From the IMG/VR virus record IMGVR_UViG_2547132270_000003, positions 1 through 7,054 of that record: a stretch of 7,054 bases of DNA. One strand, written 5' to 3'. Source of the DNA: a virus. Its lineage: Duplodnaviria > Heunggongvirae > Uroviricota > Caudoviricetes. How positions within the stretch are numbered: the stretch's first letter is position 1; each line of letters opens with the position of its first letter. Of the stretch, positions 1 to 7,054 are shown one piece after another. The position numbers and the translations under genes are program-made. The notes beneath the pieces are model-generated. The model saw nothing but the letters and a program-made list of their open reading frames with translations. It did no database searches and was not told the origin of the DNA.

Positions 1-600
1 AAATGGGCTATCTGAAAATTGAGGCGTGTCTTTTAGCAGGCGTTCCAGAATCGCAGATTCATCATCTGCCGTAAGTTCGCCAAGCTTCGCCAGCCACACA
101 TCGTCGGGCCGATCACCGACAAACGCCTGAAAGAGCCGCAGTGAGATCCATTCATGTCGGTATGGTTGATAACTGCGGGCATTCTTTTGGGTCAGGCTTT
201 GCTGAAAGCTGCGTCCGGATTTTCCAAAATCATGAAATAACCCGGCGATGGCTGCCAGCAGCGCAATGCTTTCCGCACATTGCCAGCGGTTTTCTTCCTT
301 GTTCACCAGGCTGGTTTGCGTTGTGCGATTTGTGGGAACGCGCCCCTGAGCATTAAAACGACGAATATTACCCACAATCCACATCAACTCCATTTGTCCA
401 TTCTTCTTTAGCCAGTGACATGCCACTGCGGTATTTCGCCTGGCAGTTTTGCGCAGTAAACGGCGGAGTGTATTAACTCCTTCCAGAGTAATCACCGTTT
501 GCCATGCGGCATCACCTGTACGTTCAGCAAACTGATCAATAATACGGCAGCTTTCCACACGAGCATTTTTCGTACAGCGCGAGATAATTAGGACATTCAT
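1..600 (-). CDS. cas3: Type I-F Cas2-Cas3 fusion nuclease/helicase, N-terminal part only (gene continues beyond the window start)
   Basis: Not in the ORF track because it has no stop in the window. Hand translation of the minus strand from ATG at 600..598 is open to position 1: MNVLIISRCTKNARVESCRIIDQFAERTGDAAWQTVITLEGVNTLRRLLRKTARRNTAVACHWLKKNGQMELMWIVGNIRRFNAQGRVPTNRTTQTSLVNKEENRWQCAESIALLAAIAGLFHDFGKSGRSFQQSL... This is a Cas2-like N-terminus followed by the start of an HD domain (LFHDFGK motif), as in Cas2-3 of I-F systems. The start ATG overlaps the cas1 stop (ATGA, 597..600). Confidence 0.88.
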   Translation of the reverse strand, partial: MNVLIISRCTKNARVESCRIIDQFAERTGDAAWQTVITLEGVNTLRRLLRKTARRNTAVACHWLKKNGQMELMWIVGNIRRFNAQGRVPTNRTTQTSLVNKEENRWQCAESIALLAAIAGLFHDFGKSGRSFQQSLTQKNARSYQPYRHEWISLRLFQAFVGDRPDDVWLAKLGELTADDESAILERLLKDTPQFSDSPF

Positions 601-1580
601 TGGTCAACCTTAGCCAGTACCTGGGCCGTTTCCTGCAGAGAGGTGATCATGACATCCAGCGCATCCGCTTGTTGAAAGATATTGATACAGCGTTGACGAA
701 ACTCCTGAGCATCTTCTCCCGCCATTGCGGCAATAAATGCTTGTGGCATAACCAGGGCATCTTTAATCAGATCGGCAAGGTCAAAAACAAGCCCGCCGCG
801 ACGTGTTTTACCGTGCATTACTGCTAAACCGTGCGGGATACCTGTTACCCACGCTGCGACTGCTGCCAGTCCATAAGCCAGATAATTCCCTTGATCGAGA
901 AAGCGGTTGGCCATATCAATACCACCGCCCCGTTTTGCGCGAGTGAAATCGCCATAACCCACGGTTTGGCTCACCATTTTGTAGAGTGCTTTGGTCAATT
1001 TGGCCTCTACGAGCATAAGCTGCGTATGGTTTTCTGCCGCGTCGATTTCTTCGCGAGTACGATTTAGCAGGGTCTTCAGCGCATTAGCATCAGGCTGAAA
1101 GGCGTGTTCACGCTGCATTTTCGCGCTGGTCCAATGCTTATCGATATGTGTCAGGCGGATTAACTGAAAACGTTTCGCGGCGGCAAGTCGTTTATCTTCA
1201 ACAAACCAAAAAGAAACCCACTGCTGAAGATATTCAGTAGGACGATATTCGCTTTGCGGACTGAGCCAGGAGACATCAACATCAACTTCATTTGCCGAAT
1301 ACAGCGGCGTACCATCCGTACCACAAAAGCCCACCATCACCCCGGCATGAGCAAATTCACGCATCGCCGCCTGAGTCACGGATGTTCCCATCCCCAACAT
1401 CAATGCTGTGGTATTCGCAATGGGGATATTCCAGTAGTACGACTCTTTACCTTCGCTGGTGACATACTCCACCCGCCCACCATTCACCTGTACCCGGCAT
1501 TTTTCCAGATAATAAATATTGGCGCGTTTGGAGTGGAGAATGGTTTTGAGATCGGAAGGCGTAAGGTAATTCGAAGACAT
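597..1580 (-). CDS. cas1: Type I-F Cas1 integrase (327 aa)
   Basis: ORF track 597..1586 (-). The protein (MSSNYLTPSDLKTILHSKRANIYYLEKCRVQVNGGRVEYV...GIPHGLAVMHGKTRRGGLVFDLADLIKD...) matches the Cas1 family of I-F systems from memory. The track start at 1586 is a GTG; I prefer ATG at 1580..1578, which has an AGGA Shine-Dalgarno about 8 nt upstream. Confidence 0.93.
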   Translation of the reverse strand: MSSNYLTPSDLKTILHSKRANIYYLEKCRVQVNGGRVEYVTSEGKESYYWNIPIANTTALMLGMGTSVTQAAMREFAHAGVMVGFCGTDGTPLYSANEVDVDVSWLSPQSEYRPTEYLQQWVSFWFVEDKRLAAAKRFQLIRLTHIDKHWTSAKMQREHAFQPDANALKTLLNRTREEIDAAENHTQLMLVEAKLTKALYKMVSQTVGYGDFTRAKRGGGIDMANRFLDQGNYLAYGLAAVAAWVTGIPHGLAVMHGKTRRGGLVFDLADLIKDALVMPQAFIAAMAGEDAQEFRQRCINIFQQADALDVMITSLQETAQVLAKVDQ

Positions 1581-1752
1581 AAACACATCCTGTGATTATT
1601 TTATATTTGAAGGTATTGGGCTTAGTACAGCATTGATTTATGTGCTGAAAATTGATTTCCGTCGCAATTATTACGATTGTTATTGTGTACTGAAGCTAAT
1701 GGTTCGGAGTTGAGAACGCCATAACGCAGCTAAATTTCTGCCATCATCGTAT

Positions 1753-1840
1753 TTGTGAAACTGCCTGTACGGCAGTGAACAACATCTGGCCGTAGCGCTG
1801 TTTAAACCAGTCTTTCTAAGCTGCCTGTACGGCAGTGAAC
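1753..1840 (-). CRISPR. Minimal type I-F CRISPR array: 2 repeats of 28 bp flanking one 32 bp spacer
   Basis: Plus strand has TTTCTAAGCTGCCTGTACGGCAGTGAAC at 1813..1840, the reverse complement of the I-F repeat GTTCACTGCCGTACAGGCAGCTTAGAAA. A degenerate copy TTGTGAAACTGCCTGTACGGCAGTGAAC lies at 1753..1780 (4 mismatches, all in the 8 nt that form the 3' end in transcript orientation). The spacer is 1781..1812 (aacatctggccgtagcgctgtttaaaccagtc on plus). The array is read on the minus strand, co-directional with cas1. Confidence 0.85.
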
Positions 1841-2176: not shown

Positions 2177-4453
2177 TTAATGCGCGGCTTCCGGTTTATG
2201 CTTTTGCGCACTCTGGAAGCCGTAGGTCAGCTCATTTTTCTCTTTATCCAGCGCAACAGTCACCTGGCCGCCATCCACCAGCGAGCCAAACAGCAGTTCG
2301 TTGGCGAGCGGTTTTTTCAGGTTATCCTGAATCACACGTGCCATCGGACGCGCTCCCATTGCCCGGTCGTAACCTTTTTCGGCCAGCCAGTTACGAGCTT
2401 CCTGACTCACTTCCAGAGAAACGCCTTTTTGATCCAACTGTACCTGCAACTCGACGATGAATTTATCCACCACCTGATGGATCACATCAGTAGAAAGATG
2501 ATCGAACCAGATAATGTTGTCGAGGCGGTTACGGAACTCCGGCGTAAAGATCTTCTTGATCTCCTCCATCGCATCGGTGCTGTTATCCTGCTGGATAAGG
2601 CCAATCGATTTACGCTCGGTTTCTCGTACCCCAGCGTTGGTGGTCATCACCAATACCACGTTACGGAAGTCTGCTTTGCGTCCGTTGTTATCGGTCAGCG
2701 TACCGTTATCCATCACCTGCAACAGAATGTTGAACACGTCTGGATGCGCTTTCTCGATTTCGTCCAGCAGCAGCACCGCGTGCGGATGCTTAATTACCGC
2801 ATCGGTCAGCAAACCGCCCTGATCAAAACCAACGTATCCCGGAGGCGCGCCAATCAGACGGCTGACAGTGTGACGTTCCATATATTCGGACATATCAAAG
2901 CGTAATAGCTCAATGCCCAGAGCTTTGGAAAGCTGCACTGTAACCTCAGTTTTACCGACCCCGGTTGGACCAGCAAACAGGAACGAACCGACCGGTTTAT
3001 GTTCATGGCCTAAACCCGCACGCGACATCTTGATAGCTTCGGTAAGCGCCTCAATAGCTTTATCCTGACCGAAAACCAGCATTTTCAGACGGTCGCCGAG
3101 GTTTCTTAGCGTATCGCGGTCACTCTGAGAAACACTCTTCTCAGGGATACGCGCGATACGAGCTACCACGGACTCAATATCCGCTACATTGACGGTTTTC
3201 TTACGCTTGCTGATCGGCATCAGTCGCGCACGCGCGCCGGCCTCGTCAATGACATCAATCGCCTTATCCGGCAGATGGCGATCGTTAATGTACTTCACCG
3301 CCAGTTCTACCGCCGCACGCACCGCTTTCGCGGTATAACGCACGTCGTGGTGCGCTTCGTACTTCGGTTTCAGGCCATTGATAATTTGAACGGTTTCTTC
3401 GATCGACGGCTCAGTAATATCGATTTTCTGGAAGCGGCGCGCCAGAGCACGATCTTTCTCGAAAATGTTGCTGAATTCCTGATATGTCGTTGAACCGATA
3501 ACGCGAATTTTACCGCTTGAGAGCAACGGTTTGATCAGGTTAGCCGCATCCACCTGACCGCCAGATGCTGCCCCTGCACCGATGATGGTGTGGATCTCAT
3601 CGATAAAAAGAATGCTGTTGGTATCCTGTTCCAGTTGTTTGAGCAACGCCTTAAAACGTTTTTCAAAGTCACCACGATATTTGGTGCCTGCTAACAAAGA
3701 ACCGATATCCAGAGAGTAAATCGTACAGTCAGCCATCACTTCCGGCACATCGCCCTGGACGATGCGCCAGGCGAGACCTTCCGCAATCGCAGTTTTACCG
3801 ACGCCAGACTCACCAACCAGCAGCGGGTTGTTTTTACGGCGACGGCAAAGAACCTGAATGGCGCGTTCCAGTTCCTTCTCACGACCAATCAGTGGGTCAA
3901 TGCCGCCCACTCGTGCAAGCTGATTCAGGTTAGTCGTGAAATTCTCCATACGCTCCTCCCCACCAGCTTGTTCTTCACTGCCCGGCTGGTTTCCTGGTTC
4001 AGAAGACTGAGATGGCTCGTCTTTACGCGTGCCATGAGAAATAAAGTTCACTACATCAAGGCGGCTGACTTCATGTTTGCGCAACAGATAAGCCGCCTGT
4101 GATTCCTGTTCGCTGAAGATAGCGACCAGAACGTTCGCACCGGTAACCTCATTGCGACCGGAGGACTGAACATGGAATACCGCACGTTGTAGTACACGCT
4201 GAAAACTCAATGTCGGCTGCGTGTCGCGCTCTTCTTCGCTGGCAGGCAGAACGGGCGTGGTTTGTTCAATAAAGGCTTCCAGTTCCTGACGGAGCGCAAC
4301 CAGATCTACGGAACACGCCTCCAGCGCCTCCCGGGCAGATGGGTTACTGAGCAACGCCAGTAACAAGTGCTCGACGGTCATAAACTCATGACGGTGCTCG
4401 CGCGCTCTGGCGAAAGCCATGTTTAAACTGAGTTCCAGTTCTTGATTGAGCAT
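2177..4453 (-). CDS. clpA: ATP-dependent Clp protease ATP-binding subunit ClpA (758 aa)
   Basis: ORF track 2177..4468 (-). The protein is essentially the E. coli ClpA sequence as I recall it ([35 protein letters not shown]..., two AAA+ modules with GESGVGKT and GPTGVGKT Walker A motifs). The true start is the second ATG at 4453 (MLNQ...), preceded by GGAGG; the track's upstream ATG at 4468 lies inside that ribosome-binding site. Confidence 0.97.
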
Positions 4454-4483
4454 AGGCACCTCCCCCAATTTTTATGCCTGCAT

Positions 4484-4804: not shown

Positions 4805-4977
4805 TGTCAGTTATCATCTTCGGTTACGGTTATCGGCAGAACGCTCTGCCGCTGACAAGAGCTTATTTGCCTGACCAATCTACTTCACATGATAGATAAC
4901 TATCATTTATATCATTTAGTTAATTAGTCTTTATTTTTCATTATGTTGCAAATAACAAGCCCGTCAAAAACAGTGAT

Positions 4978-5034
4978 ATTAACTACACCATTAACTACAC
5001 CGCTTCACGAACAATATCGAACAACCGCGAACAA
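4978..5034. repeat. Perfect tandem 12-bp repeat (ATTAACTACACC x2) followed by three CGAACAA heptamers at exact 10-bp phasing
   Basis: Read directly: ATTAACTACACC at 4978..4989 and 4990..5001; CGAACAA at 5008..5014, 5018..5024 and 5028..5034. It lies about 175 to 230 bp upstream of the clpS start in an AT-rich region. Confidence 0.5.
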
Positions 5035-5299
5035 AGATCAACACGCTTTAATCATTATCATTTTCCGGCTATCCGTCATGAAGCTGGTGGATGATCTGCG
5101 TGGTGATTTCCACCATTCAGAGCAGGGCGGTCATCATGACCATGCCATAACAAAAACCCCATATTCGTGGTTTTTCTGTGTCGGGGCTATTCTGCTGTTG
5201 CCGTGCTGGTGGATATTCTCCGGTATGCGGCTCCCCATATCGGCATCAGGCCCACCAGCGTGAAGCGTTTTTCATTTTTCGCGGGTATAAAAAATCGAT

Positions 5300-5348
5300 G
5301 GGGCGGGCAGTCCTGAAGAGGTCAGGATACAGAGATTTGACCCGCCCC
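5300..5348 (-). other. GC-rich hairpin (GGGGCGGG ... CCCGCCCC) with an inner TCCTGA/TCAGGA hairpin; terminator-like for leftward transcripts
   Basis: Inverted repeat GGGGCGGG (5300..5307) and CCCGCCCC (5341..5348). On the minus strand a T6 tract follows, but after a 5-nt spacer, so it is not a textbook terminator. A 14-bp perfect palindrome GGCGGAATTCCGCC lies nearby at 5381..5394. Confidence 0.35.
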
Positions 5349-5524
5349 CTCCCTGTGCATGAGCACAATAAGTAACCAAAGGCGGAATTCCGCCCTCGGT
5401 GCTCACATATAAGAAACGATATTTCTTCCACCGATCCCCTGTATTTTGGTATCGCGGGTAAGCCCCAAAATCTGGGTGTTACTCTTACTACCCAAACTAC
5501 GGGTAGTTTCCGTAGTTTCTGGTC

Positions 5525-5544
5525 GAGTTGCAGATCTGCAACTC
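5525..5544. promoter_or_regulatory. 20-bp perfect palindrome GAGTTGCAGATCTGCAACTC (candidate protein-binding site)
   Basis: Read directly; the sequence is its own reverse complement over 20 bp, in a region with no convincing gene. Confidence 0.4.
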
Positions 5545-5800
5545 ACCCACCAGCTAACCCATTTTTGGGCCGTCGGGAATATCAACCAGTTACTGCCAGT
5601 GATCTGGATGTTCTGCAGTCTGGCTGGTGGCTGGACGCTGATTTTTTGCGTACCTGTATCGGTTTCGTATCCGGTGGATGTTCTGCGTACTTTTCAGAGG
5701 CGGATTTCCGCCCACGCCATTCTGGACCAGTTGAAGGGGCCGAATACATCACCGGATTTAGGGGATGTTCCCGGCCTCCTCAATTTGAGGATTGTGGAAG

Positions 5801-5869
5801 AATCAATGGGTTAGTCTTACTGTCCCTCATTTCCTGCATTGCAGGTTTTCGAAATAATCAATGGGTTAG
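5801..5869. repeat. Direct repeats AATCAATGGGTTAG (5801..5814 and 5856..5869), 55 bp apart
   Basis: Read directly. A third, inverted copy of the ATGGGTTAG core (plus-strand CTAACCCAT) lies near 5553..5561. The second direct copy overlaps the TGA (5858..5860) that ends the open frame downstream of the 94-aa ORF. Confidence 0.5.
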
Positions 5870-6031
5870 GCCATCGTGCAATTTTGCACTTTGCCAGCCA
5901 GCGCAATGTTGCGTTATCGGGAATATCAGCACGTTACCGGCTTTCGTCATGTTAAACACTGGCCAGGCATCGCCATTCTTATCAATAAAATCACCAGGCT
6001 CAAAATTGAGCTTTGCTTTAATCTCAGCAAG

Positions 6032-6316
6032 TTACCGCCGTAACCGTTCCGGCTTCTTCCACTGGTAAGTTTTTTTCTCGCTCTCCTGATACATCGCCAC
6101 ACGTCGACGGTATGCCAGCAACTCTAATACCCTGGTTCGTATGTCGCGCATATCCACGCCGTTAAGATCGATACCGTCACAGCGCATCACCTCAGCCACC
6201 ACACGCGCGTAATTTTCAGCGGTGACGGTATCAGGCTGCATGGCCTCCTGTGTGCCAGCCTGCTGGCTGATTCCGGTAACGCGGCGGATTAATCCCAGTA
6301 GTTCGGCTTCTGTCAT
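6032..6316 (-). CDS. Hypothetical small protein (94 aa) immediately downstream of the terS-like gene, possibly a truncated or interrupted gene
   Basis: ORF track 6032..6316 (-), starting at an ATG 11 nt after the terS-like stop with no clear Shine-Dalgarno, so translational coupling is plausible. It ends at TAA 6032..6034, and the same frame stays open for 57 more codons to TGA at 5858..5860. It does not resemble the lambda large terminase gpA N-terminus as I recall it. Confidence 0.5.
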   Translation of the reverse strand: MTEAELLGLIRRVTGISQQAGTQEAMQPDTVTAENYARVVAEVMRCDGIDLNGVDMRDIRTRVLELLAYRRRVAMYQESEKKTYQWKKPERLRR

Positions 6317-6327
6317 AGTGCGCTACG

Positions 6328-6870
6328 TTACTTGTCTTTATCCGGCTGAAACTTATCAGGCACATTTCCGGTAGTTTCCATCAGATAATCGGACAGTATT
6401 CGCGGGATGTTTTCATCAAGTTTTGTGCATGCGTTACAGGCTCTGACAACTTCCTTTTTAAGTCCATCCAGCATAGCGGGGGTAATCTGTGGGAAGCGCC
6501 TTTGCATGGTAAGCGGCAAACTGTCCATGATTGAAGAAATCTGACTCGCCAGTTTTGAAAGCACATATATACAAAATTCCGTACTAATAACGTCGCCGCG
6601 TTCGCGCTCGTTTTTAAGCTCCTGCGCCTCCGCCTGCGCTGTCAGCAATCTGATCCTGACTCGCAAAAGTTCATCATTATCAATCTCGCCTTTGTCGTCT
6701 GTAATCTGGTTAATTGCATTGCTAACCCGATTGTCTATTACGCTGGCAACATCATAAAACGCCTCGCGGCCTTTACGTTCAACGGGAGTCACTCCCCACT
6801 TGTCGAACGCTGTCGCACTTACACGGCAGCTTTGCGCCATGTTTTTTTTGTTCATCAGGTACGATTTCAT
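6328..6870 (-). CDS. terS: Phage lambda Nu1-like terminase small subunit (TerS)
   Basis: ORF track 6328..6882 (-). The C-terminal two thirds (LLTAQAEAQELKNERERGDVISTEFCIYVLSKLASQISSIMDSLPLTMQRRFP...LDENIPRILSDYLME) aligns with lambda Nu1 as I recall it (RLTRAQADAQELKNARDSAEVVETAFCTFVLSRIAGEIASILDGLPLSVQRRFP...LDELIPGLLSEYIE). The N-terminal region is divergent. The track start at 6882 is a GTG; I prefer ATG at 6870, which has GGGGA 5 nt upstream, and ATG at 6855 is an alternative. Confidence 0.85.
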   Translation of the reverse strand: MKSYLMNKKNMAQSCRVSATAFDKWGVTPVERKGREAFYDVASVIDNRVSNAINQITDDKGEIDNDELLRVRIRLLTAQAEAQELKNERERGDVISTEFCIYVLSKLASQISSIMDSLPLTMQRRFPQITPAMLDGLKKEVVRACNACTKLDENIPRILSDYLMETTGNVPDKFQPDKDK

Positions 6871-7054
6871 CAATATCCCCACTTAAGTAATGTTTCAGGT
6901 TGGTGTATTGGTTTTATCTTTCCCTTTTTATTCATAGAGATAGAGCGAACAACAAAACCACCACCAATCCCCTAAAAATACTCATAAATAGCGAAAACCC
7001 GCAAGGTCGCCGCCCCGTAGCCTACCGGATCGCCGGAAAGGACCCGCCAGCCAG
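6871..7054 (-). other. Lambda-type cos site: cosN cohesive-end sequence at 7004..7015 with a divergent cosB between cosN and terS
   Basis: Minus strand reads CTACG GGGCGGCGACCT TGCGGGTTTTCGCTATTTATGAGTATTTTTAGGGG. From memory the lambda left end is GGGCGGCGACCTCGCGGGTTTTCGCTATTTATGAAAATTTTCCGG, so the 12-nt cohesive end and the adjoining ~22 nt are nearly identical. Similarity is lost after about 35 nt, through the ~135 bp up to the terS start. Confidence 0.75.

Follow-up and report, generated by a model that had tools for sequence, protein, structure and literature searches.

An apparently complete terminal gene of an Escherichia coli phage satellite, followed by a non-coding mosaic array of repeats

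Does the small open reading frame (ORF) that follows terS in this locus encode a complete protein, or is it what remains of a longer gene cut by a nonsense mutation? The question was raised by an initial annotation of the DNA analyzed here, a stretch of 7,054 nucleotides that we call the window. Translation of 5858-6316 on the minus strand confirmed the arrangement that the annotation had described. The frame runs through 94 codons to a TAA, continues with 57 sense codons (LAEIKAKLNFEPGDFIDKNGDAWPVFNMTKAGNVLIFPITQHCAGWQSAKLHDGLTH) and closes with a TGA at 5858-5860. Two explanations had been offered, a pseudogene of about 152 codons or a 94-aa gene plus a coincidental open frame. The chance of such a 57-codon run had been put at roughly 6 percent, which was a fair estimate; we computed 4.3% with the local base composition and 6.5% with a uniform one.

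The window is a piece of the E. coli chromosome. A phage-inducible chromosomal island (PICI) of ~10.6 kb has inserted there between yljB/cspD and clpS, and the window covers its right end, which begins after clpS. The window also contains clpA and clpS as well as part of a type I-F CRISPR-cas locus (Table 1). The att core recurs at the int-side junction in loci L001 and L002, and the segment 4805-4910 is the sole part of the window matched by most E. coli genomes. No tRNA or tmRNA was found in a search at the att site. Because the window holds the right end only, its assignment to the PICIs rests on the complete islands L009-L014, whose arm has 99.5-100% identity with the island part of the window. 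The complete copies carry int, alpA, a D5-type primase gene, ssb, lambda E-like capsid and D-like decoration genes, a second AlpA-like gene, terS and the 94-aa gene. The exact 94-aa protein and the identical island arm were found in E. coli assemblies with those genes. Such a gene set is that of a Gram-negative PICI (PMC6092414; bioRxiv 10.1101/2022.07.18.500453), and the island resembles the EcCICFT073 type in its gene set, its cos, its size of ~10 kb and its dedicated att site. PADLOC defence-system models gave no match.

Two side observations concern the flanks. clpA (2177-4468) was only 91% identical to that of strains whose island (4907-7054) is 100% identical. Divergence is thus far greater in the clpA flank, beside the type I-F CRISPR-cas locus, than in the mobile element. 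A 12-nt sequence is repeated in tandem close to the att core on the right arm (ATTAACTACACC, two copies at 4978-5001) and again beside int on the left arm (L001, 22578-22602); these repeats are probably arm-type integrase sites.

Table 1. Features of the window, with positions counted from its first nucleotide
Feature	Position	Strand	Details
cas1, type I-F	597-1586	(-)	inferred from ORF translation
CRISPR repeat	1813-1840		Rfam match CRISPR-DR4
att core	4890-4906		TGATAGATAACTATCAT, 17 bp; right boundary of satellite, adjoins clpS
P27/SfII/ST64B-type cos region	5270-5357	(-)	cohesive-end motif TGCCCGCCCC at 5300-5309
Second stop-free stretch	5406-5693	(-)	96 codons; stop 5403-5405
Repeat unit, D1 reference copy	5550-5593	(-)	GTAACTGGTTGATATTCCCGACGG; hairpin CCCA-AAAA-TGGG; IHF consensus 5580-5592
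Repeat unit, D2 copy	5762-5814	(-)	hairpin TCCTCA-AAT-TGAGGA; IHF core consensus 5801-5813
Repeat unit, D2 copy	5815-5869	(-)	CTAACCCATTGATT box; hairpin CCTGC-AAT-GCAGG; IHF core consensus 5856-5868
57-codon open frame	5858-6031	(-)	non-coding; repeat units and rha scrap
Repeat unit, D1 copy	5894-5937	(-)	GTAACGTGCTGATATTCCCGATAA; hairpin CGCAA-CA-TTGCG, then CTGGCTGG
Patch of prophage Rha-family gene	5927-6011	(-)	85 bp; no start codon; decaying
First repeat unit	5992-6035	(-)	variant box TAACTTGCTGAG; hairpin GCTCAA-TT-TTGAGC at 5998-6011
TAA stop of the 94-aa gene	6032-6034	(-)	also TAA of first unit (GTAAC-N3-YTGAT/CTGAG box)
94-aa gene	6032-6316	(-)	stop included; very probably intact; phrog_1561 member; last gene of satellite
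terS, Nu1-type small terminase of satellite	6328-6882	(-)	ends 11 nt before 94-aa gene
Lambda-type cosN	7004-7015	(-)	GGGCGGCGACCT; upstream of terS

Comparison with homologues leaves little doubt that these 94 codons make up a whole, conserved gene of an E. coli phage satellite, one that ends at its native stop and in which nothing was interrupted. The protein matched phrog_1561 with an E value of 1.8e-49, residues 1-94 aligning with positions 1-93 of a 93-position profile. Most of the 955 homologues were 93-97 aa long. Those of 122-149 aa were N-terminal extensions due to the start call and had the C-terminus ...WKKPERLRR in common. An exhaustive profile search that covered 1.84 billion cluster representatives returned only 40 clusters at 50% identity, the long members of which were frameshift variants. 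The most distant full-length members (86-105 aa, ~45% identity) kept the frame and still ended with KPERLRR.

Species-representative genomes gave a single locus, in Shigella flexneri, so the comparison set was drawn from IMG/VR and E. coli genomes. It comprised 95 homologous loci from E. coli genomes, assemblies and IMG/VR contigs. The stop came directly after ...ERLR(R/T) in all of them (94 TAA, 1 TAG). Orthologues with a sense codon in place of the TAA, the check put forward in the initial annotation, numbered 0 of 95. The 94-aa protein has the C-terminus typical of the family, ...YxWKKPERLRR followed by the stop. The 45 nt after the stop occurred in 37 different versions, and between 1 and 59 open codons followed it in the 95 loci. 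A common stop with unconserved sequence behind it is the outcome that the initial annotation had named as refuting an interruption. A pseudogene, in which the TAA would have cut an ancestral gene of ~152 codons, could account for 57 in-frame sense codons that chance alone would give in 4-6% of cases. However, no homologue extended past ...ERLRR, the 93-position profile was matched from end to end, even the distant members of 86-105 aa ended with the same residues, and the downstream DNA was an unconserved mosaic whose open run is explained by an unrelated scrap of rha. We regard the pseudogene as virtually impossible. The alternative, a 94-aa gene plus an open frame outside it, was right.

The variable sites of the gene were distributed over the three codon positions as 33/31/65. 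This third-position bias is as expected for a translated gene, although the signal of selection is modest, since the family is narrow (40 clusters) and its variation mostly recent. These data also bear on the idea that the ORF is no gene at all, its conservation reflecting a cis-acting DNA element beside cos. The protein has no Pfam or NCBIfam family, its structure model is poor, and the ORF lies beside cos sites and runs straight into a structured repeat array, as might be expected of such an element. Against this, the ORF remained open at 93-97 codons across at least 25 alleles with third-position-biased variation, and it stayed open in islands with quite different flanks. The distant members at ~45% identity preserved both frame and C-terminus, and NCBI annotates the ORF as a CDS. 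A cis-acting element without a gene is therefore very unlikely.

The 57 codons behind the native stop had a different origin. The run was present only in the seven loci with the identical island (the window and L009-L014). Relative to sister islands, ~93 extra bases lie directly after the stop, between two copies of TGCTGAnATT. An 85-bp patch in this region showed 87.1% nucleotide identity to genes annotated as Rha family transcriptional regulators in 28 E. coli genomes, and among the 95 loci it was found only in the window-type island. It corresponds to roughly residues 59-87 of a 181-aa Rha and aligns with residues 67-97 of phi80 Rha, with 15 of 28 amino acids identical. Its translation is LNFEPGDFIDKNGDAWPVFNMTKAGNVL, as compared with LNFEPTDFIDKNGDVQPMFNMTKDGYML in the prophage Rha. 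The TIGR02681 profile matched the patch with an E value of 6e-5 and 23.1 bits (cutoff 45.95), over positions 47-77 of 108 only, and the matches to Rha-like PHROGs were sub-threshold. The patch is thus homologous to a bona fide Rha gene. The continuation as a whole was considered as an Rha gene and rejected, as it scores below the cutoff, lacks a start codon and has repeat units on its flanks. The 11 differences between the patch and the prophage gene fell on codon positions 5/4/2 and changed 7 of 28 residues, a pattern of neutral decay.

Donor-type lambdoid prophages carry rha in the interval from the lysis genes to the HNH/terS/terL genes. When the arm was compared with the rha-to-cos region of such a prophage for colinearity, only 85 bp matched. 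We infer that in this lineage an internal 85-bp piece of a lambdoid-prophage rha recombined into the repeat array, behind the hairpin of the first unit and ahead of the box of the second, at junctions that seem to show microhomology. The patch would have come to lie in the frame of the 94-aa gene by chance, one in three. As former coding sequence it carries no stops, and thus the frame was stretched to 57 codons. It could be a lineage-specific insertion, or it could be the remnant of a longer ancestral insert that was deleted in other lineages. Another unit type has the first ~20 nt after the stop in common. Lineage-specific inserts between units also occur in L007 and L002, and these had no match in the phage collection. 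The open frame, described as coincidental in the initial annotation, is indeed not part of the gene, but about half of it is a decaying in-frame rha scrap.

The same patch could be taken for the tail of a second product. Programmed readthrough of the stop codon would yield a minor 151-aa isoform with a Rha-like C-terminal tail, and the open frame, the TAA-C stop context and the recognizable protein motif in the extension are compatible with it. However, the extension is confined to one island lineage, it gathers non-synonymous changes, and its ~28 residues come from the middle of the Rha domain and are not a foldable unit. No signal for readthrough is known here. We consider readthrough exceedingly unlikely.

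The right arm after the stop is a non-coding, tandem mosaic array of units of ~45-55 nt. Each unit follows the plan (C/G)TAAC-N3-YTGAT-ATTYYCGR.., then a 4-7-bp hairpin, then GGCYGG. The direct repeats that we call D1 and D2 belong to this one family. The first unit supplies the TAA of the 94-aa gene. The stop lay inside a unit box in 45 of the 72 loci with at least 45 nt of downstream sequence, and the box type of the first unit in the window followed the stop in 14 loci. The TGA that closes the open frame belongs to the third unit, of 55 nt, where it sits in the TTGAT box. The observation that the frame ends inside a direct repeat was therefore accurate; the two D2 copies (5777-5814 and 5832-5869) are 76% identical. 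Across loci, at least 10 different stems occupied the hairpin position, among them CCTCA, CGCAA, CCCA, CCCCC, CCTGC, TTCGCC, CAGCC, GCGCA, CGGCTCA and CTCCTCA. A perfect stem of at least 5 bp was present in 62% of 76 distinct box matches, compared with 6.6% of shuffles.

The unit box matches the IHF core consensus WATCAANNNNTTR (TAA-N4-TTGAT-W). The window contained 4 matches to this consensus where 0.35 were expected, and 3 of the 4 were in the array. Both IHF binding and hairpin formation are predictions from the base pattern of the units. RNA folding of 5755-6040 on the minus strand was only mildly better than that of shuffles (z = -2.2). The units could act as DNA, through IHF-bent architecture or as a recombination hot spot, or as RNA, through a structured 3' end. 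Rfam models gave nothing on the arm at gathering scores, and chance-level matches only at E values up to 10. The units were confined to satellite arms, in 1-6 places per genome, and were absent from the phage collection at the sensitivity of blastn. The islands that have them differ in att site and include classical, helper-embedded and capsid-forming ones (L099, 3652-3850; L005-L007). In ~14 loci among L016-L095 (e.g. TAACTTGTGGTGACATACCGTGACGGAGAGTGACAACCAGTGACAC), the stop was followed by four GTGAC repeats with a spacing of ~10 bp. These look like iterons, and they replace the IHF-box units in those islands. In the literature searched, we found no description of a repeat family that combines IHF-consensus boxes with hairpins of covarying stems.

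A second stop-free stretch on the minus strand had been noted as resembling the continuation, and this was read as a hint of a duplicated and decayed coding fragment. The stretch exists, with 96 codons. Its resemblance to the continuation is that of a 44-nt DNA repeat, D1 (5550-5593 against 5894-5937, 73% identical), and amounts to 7 of 14 identities at the protein level. The peptide ..NWLIFPTAQKW.. arises from the unit at 5550-5593 read in another frame. A decayed coding fragment is indeed present in the form of the rha scrap, but the supposed duplicate (..LIFP..W..) is a non-coding unit read in two frames. The stretch showed no similarity to Rha and no PHROG match, and its match to Pfam DUF6780 was sub-threshold (E = 0.04-0.06). 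We found no support for it as a gene, and none of the other ORFs on either strand of the arm had family support. In some RefSeq genomes the homologous region is annotated with a hypothetical protein, and spurious ORFs of this arm are possibly what the DUF6780 family was built from. A second, decayed copy of the 94-aa gene before the unit at 5593 was also looked for, because a vestigial TAAC occurs there, and was rejected. With tblastn there was only a 19-aa patch (E = 0.25), and the family HMM reached a best E value of 4 against six-frame translations of the arm in seven loci.

terS matched Pfam Phage_Nu1 (E = 1e-23) and phrog_57 (E = 1e-50), with 37% identity to lambda Nu1, and the cosN upstream of it is identical to the left end of lambda at 33 of 34 positions. 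A second cos region of a different type lies on the arm. It showed 79-92% identity to the genome ends of ST64B, SfII, SfI and 118970_sal3, a range that includes the cos-site annotated in phiP27 (HNH/P27-terS type). With cos sites of two types, the satellite would be predicted to be packaged by two families of helpers. The arm with the P27-type cos is common to a capsid-forming PICI at the same att site (L003).

The 94-aa gene itself is specific to satellites and essentially absent from phage genomes. The family had one weak match in 50,697 phage records and was found in 267 IMG/VR contigs. The gene was always the last before the att-side arm. Its upstream neighbor was a Nu1-type terS in ~40 loci and, in 29 others, terL, these being capsid-forming islands; the remaining loci had other genes there. 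The gene of the window has this last position, beside terS, where other members stand beside rppA/cos or terL. A lambda cosN in inverted orientation precedes the 93-aa gene by 76 nt in 27 IMG/VR loci and in EcCICFT073 (L099, 3265-3318), and this is presumably the published cos2. Gene callers sometimes read through the inverted cosN, and proteins with an N-terminal extension, such as P0092 and P0131, are the result. One sister island, which ends with the same terS and 93-aa gene, lies inside a prophage portal gene (L006, E. coli 210205630, 2763-7175), an arrangement that corresponds to the helper-embedded satellites of bioRxiv 10.1101/2022.07.18.500453.

The AlphaFold model was all-helical with a disordered linker, but too weak to be informative (mean pLDDT 64); Foldseek of this model against the PDB gave a best E value of 1.6 and nothing at E<=0.001. 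The RppC structure in the PDB had no sequence match to the 94-aa protein, and no other solved relatives were found by sequence. Membership in the Rpp proteins (RppA-C, winged HTH, 139-154 aa) was considered and rejected, as there was no sequence similarity. We tentatively suggest a role in the cos/terminase packaging module, as an accessory factor that is small and helical and has a basic tail. This guess is drawn solely from the fixed position of the gene next to terS, rppA/cos2 or terL.

What the locus offers is an annotated hypothetical gene with a normal stop, in a known kind of satellite and followed by non-coding DNA. As first proposed, the locus matters little, for there is no interrupted gene, no readthrough and no homologue of lambda gpFI. 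Its interest lies in a satellite-specific gene that ends nearly all E. coli PICIs, among them EcCICFT073, which has been studied by experiment, and further in the repeat family of the arm behind this gene and in the cos sites of two phage types. There is some chance, perhaps a modest one, that the 94-aa protein and the IHF-box/hairpin array that starts at its stop constitute an uncharacterized functional module. Such a module would be common to classical, helper-embedded and capsid-forming E. coli PICIs, EcCICFT073 among them, and would exchange short patches with late-region genes of helper prophages such as rha. Its role might be in packaging or in DNA architecture, as an element beside cos, or it might be a structured 3' RNA.

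The closest known counterpart is in EcCICFT073, the prototype Gram-negative PICI. Its last ORF (WP_000133413.1, 93 aa) is 74% identical to the 94-aa protein over the full length, has the same C-terminus and stop, and is the last gene before the att-side arm. Repeat units of the same family, three in number, follow its stop. The two islands differ upstream. The gene stands behind rppA and an inverted second lambda-type cosN in EcCICFT073, whereas in the window it follows a full-length Nu1-type terS after an 11-nt gap. The upstream neighbor in EcCICFT073 (rppA, 144 aa) matches RppC (PDB 6HLK, E = 5e-31). Among the post-ori genes of EcCICFT073, only c1503 (rppA) is reported to have blocked lambda when expressed (PMC6739421), in a set that may or may not have included the terminal 93-aa ORF.

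Lambda gpFI, a DNA-packaging chaperone (Pfam Packaging_FI), was the likeness proposed initially. Both are small proteins in a lambda-type head and packaging set, and they have an M-T-x-x-E-L start and a QPDTV motif in common. The packaging module is of lambda-like descent, with a Nu1-like terS and a lambda-type cos, and homologues of the capsid protein E and the decoration protein D occur in the identical island. However, the similarity was not significant by sequence or profile. BLASTP aligned no more than 19 residues, around the QPDTV motif (E = 0.048 for one comparison), Pfam gave no match at E<=1, and hhalign returned a probability of 0.7% over 8 columns. The all-helical AlphaFold model, which is of low confidence, had no fold match in the PDB, and the 94-aa gene is absent from phage genomes. 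The gene positions also differ. Lambda FI follows the major capsid gene E, but the 94-aa gene follows terS at the end of the island and does not lie between the major capsid and head-tail joining genes. It is highly improbable that the 94-aa protein is the satellite version of gpFI.

The last two comparisons concern the DNA behind the gene. With the Rha proteins (phi80 Rha; TIGR02681/Phage_pRha) the arm has in common the 87% DNA identity over 5927-6011, but only ~28 of ~181 residues are represented, as a pseudogene scrap and not a gene. The repeat units are reminiscent of BIMEs of the RIP/RIB type, palindromic repeats in enterobacterial chromosomes that bind IHF. In both, a short unit that joins an IHF consensus site with short palindromes is reiterated. 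However, their sequences differ, and the units described here occur only in the right arms of satellites, where the stop codon of one specific gene marks their start.
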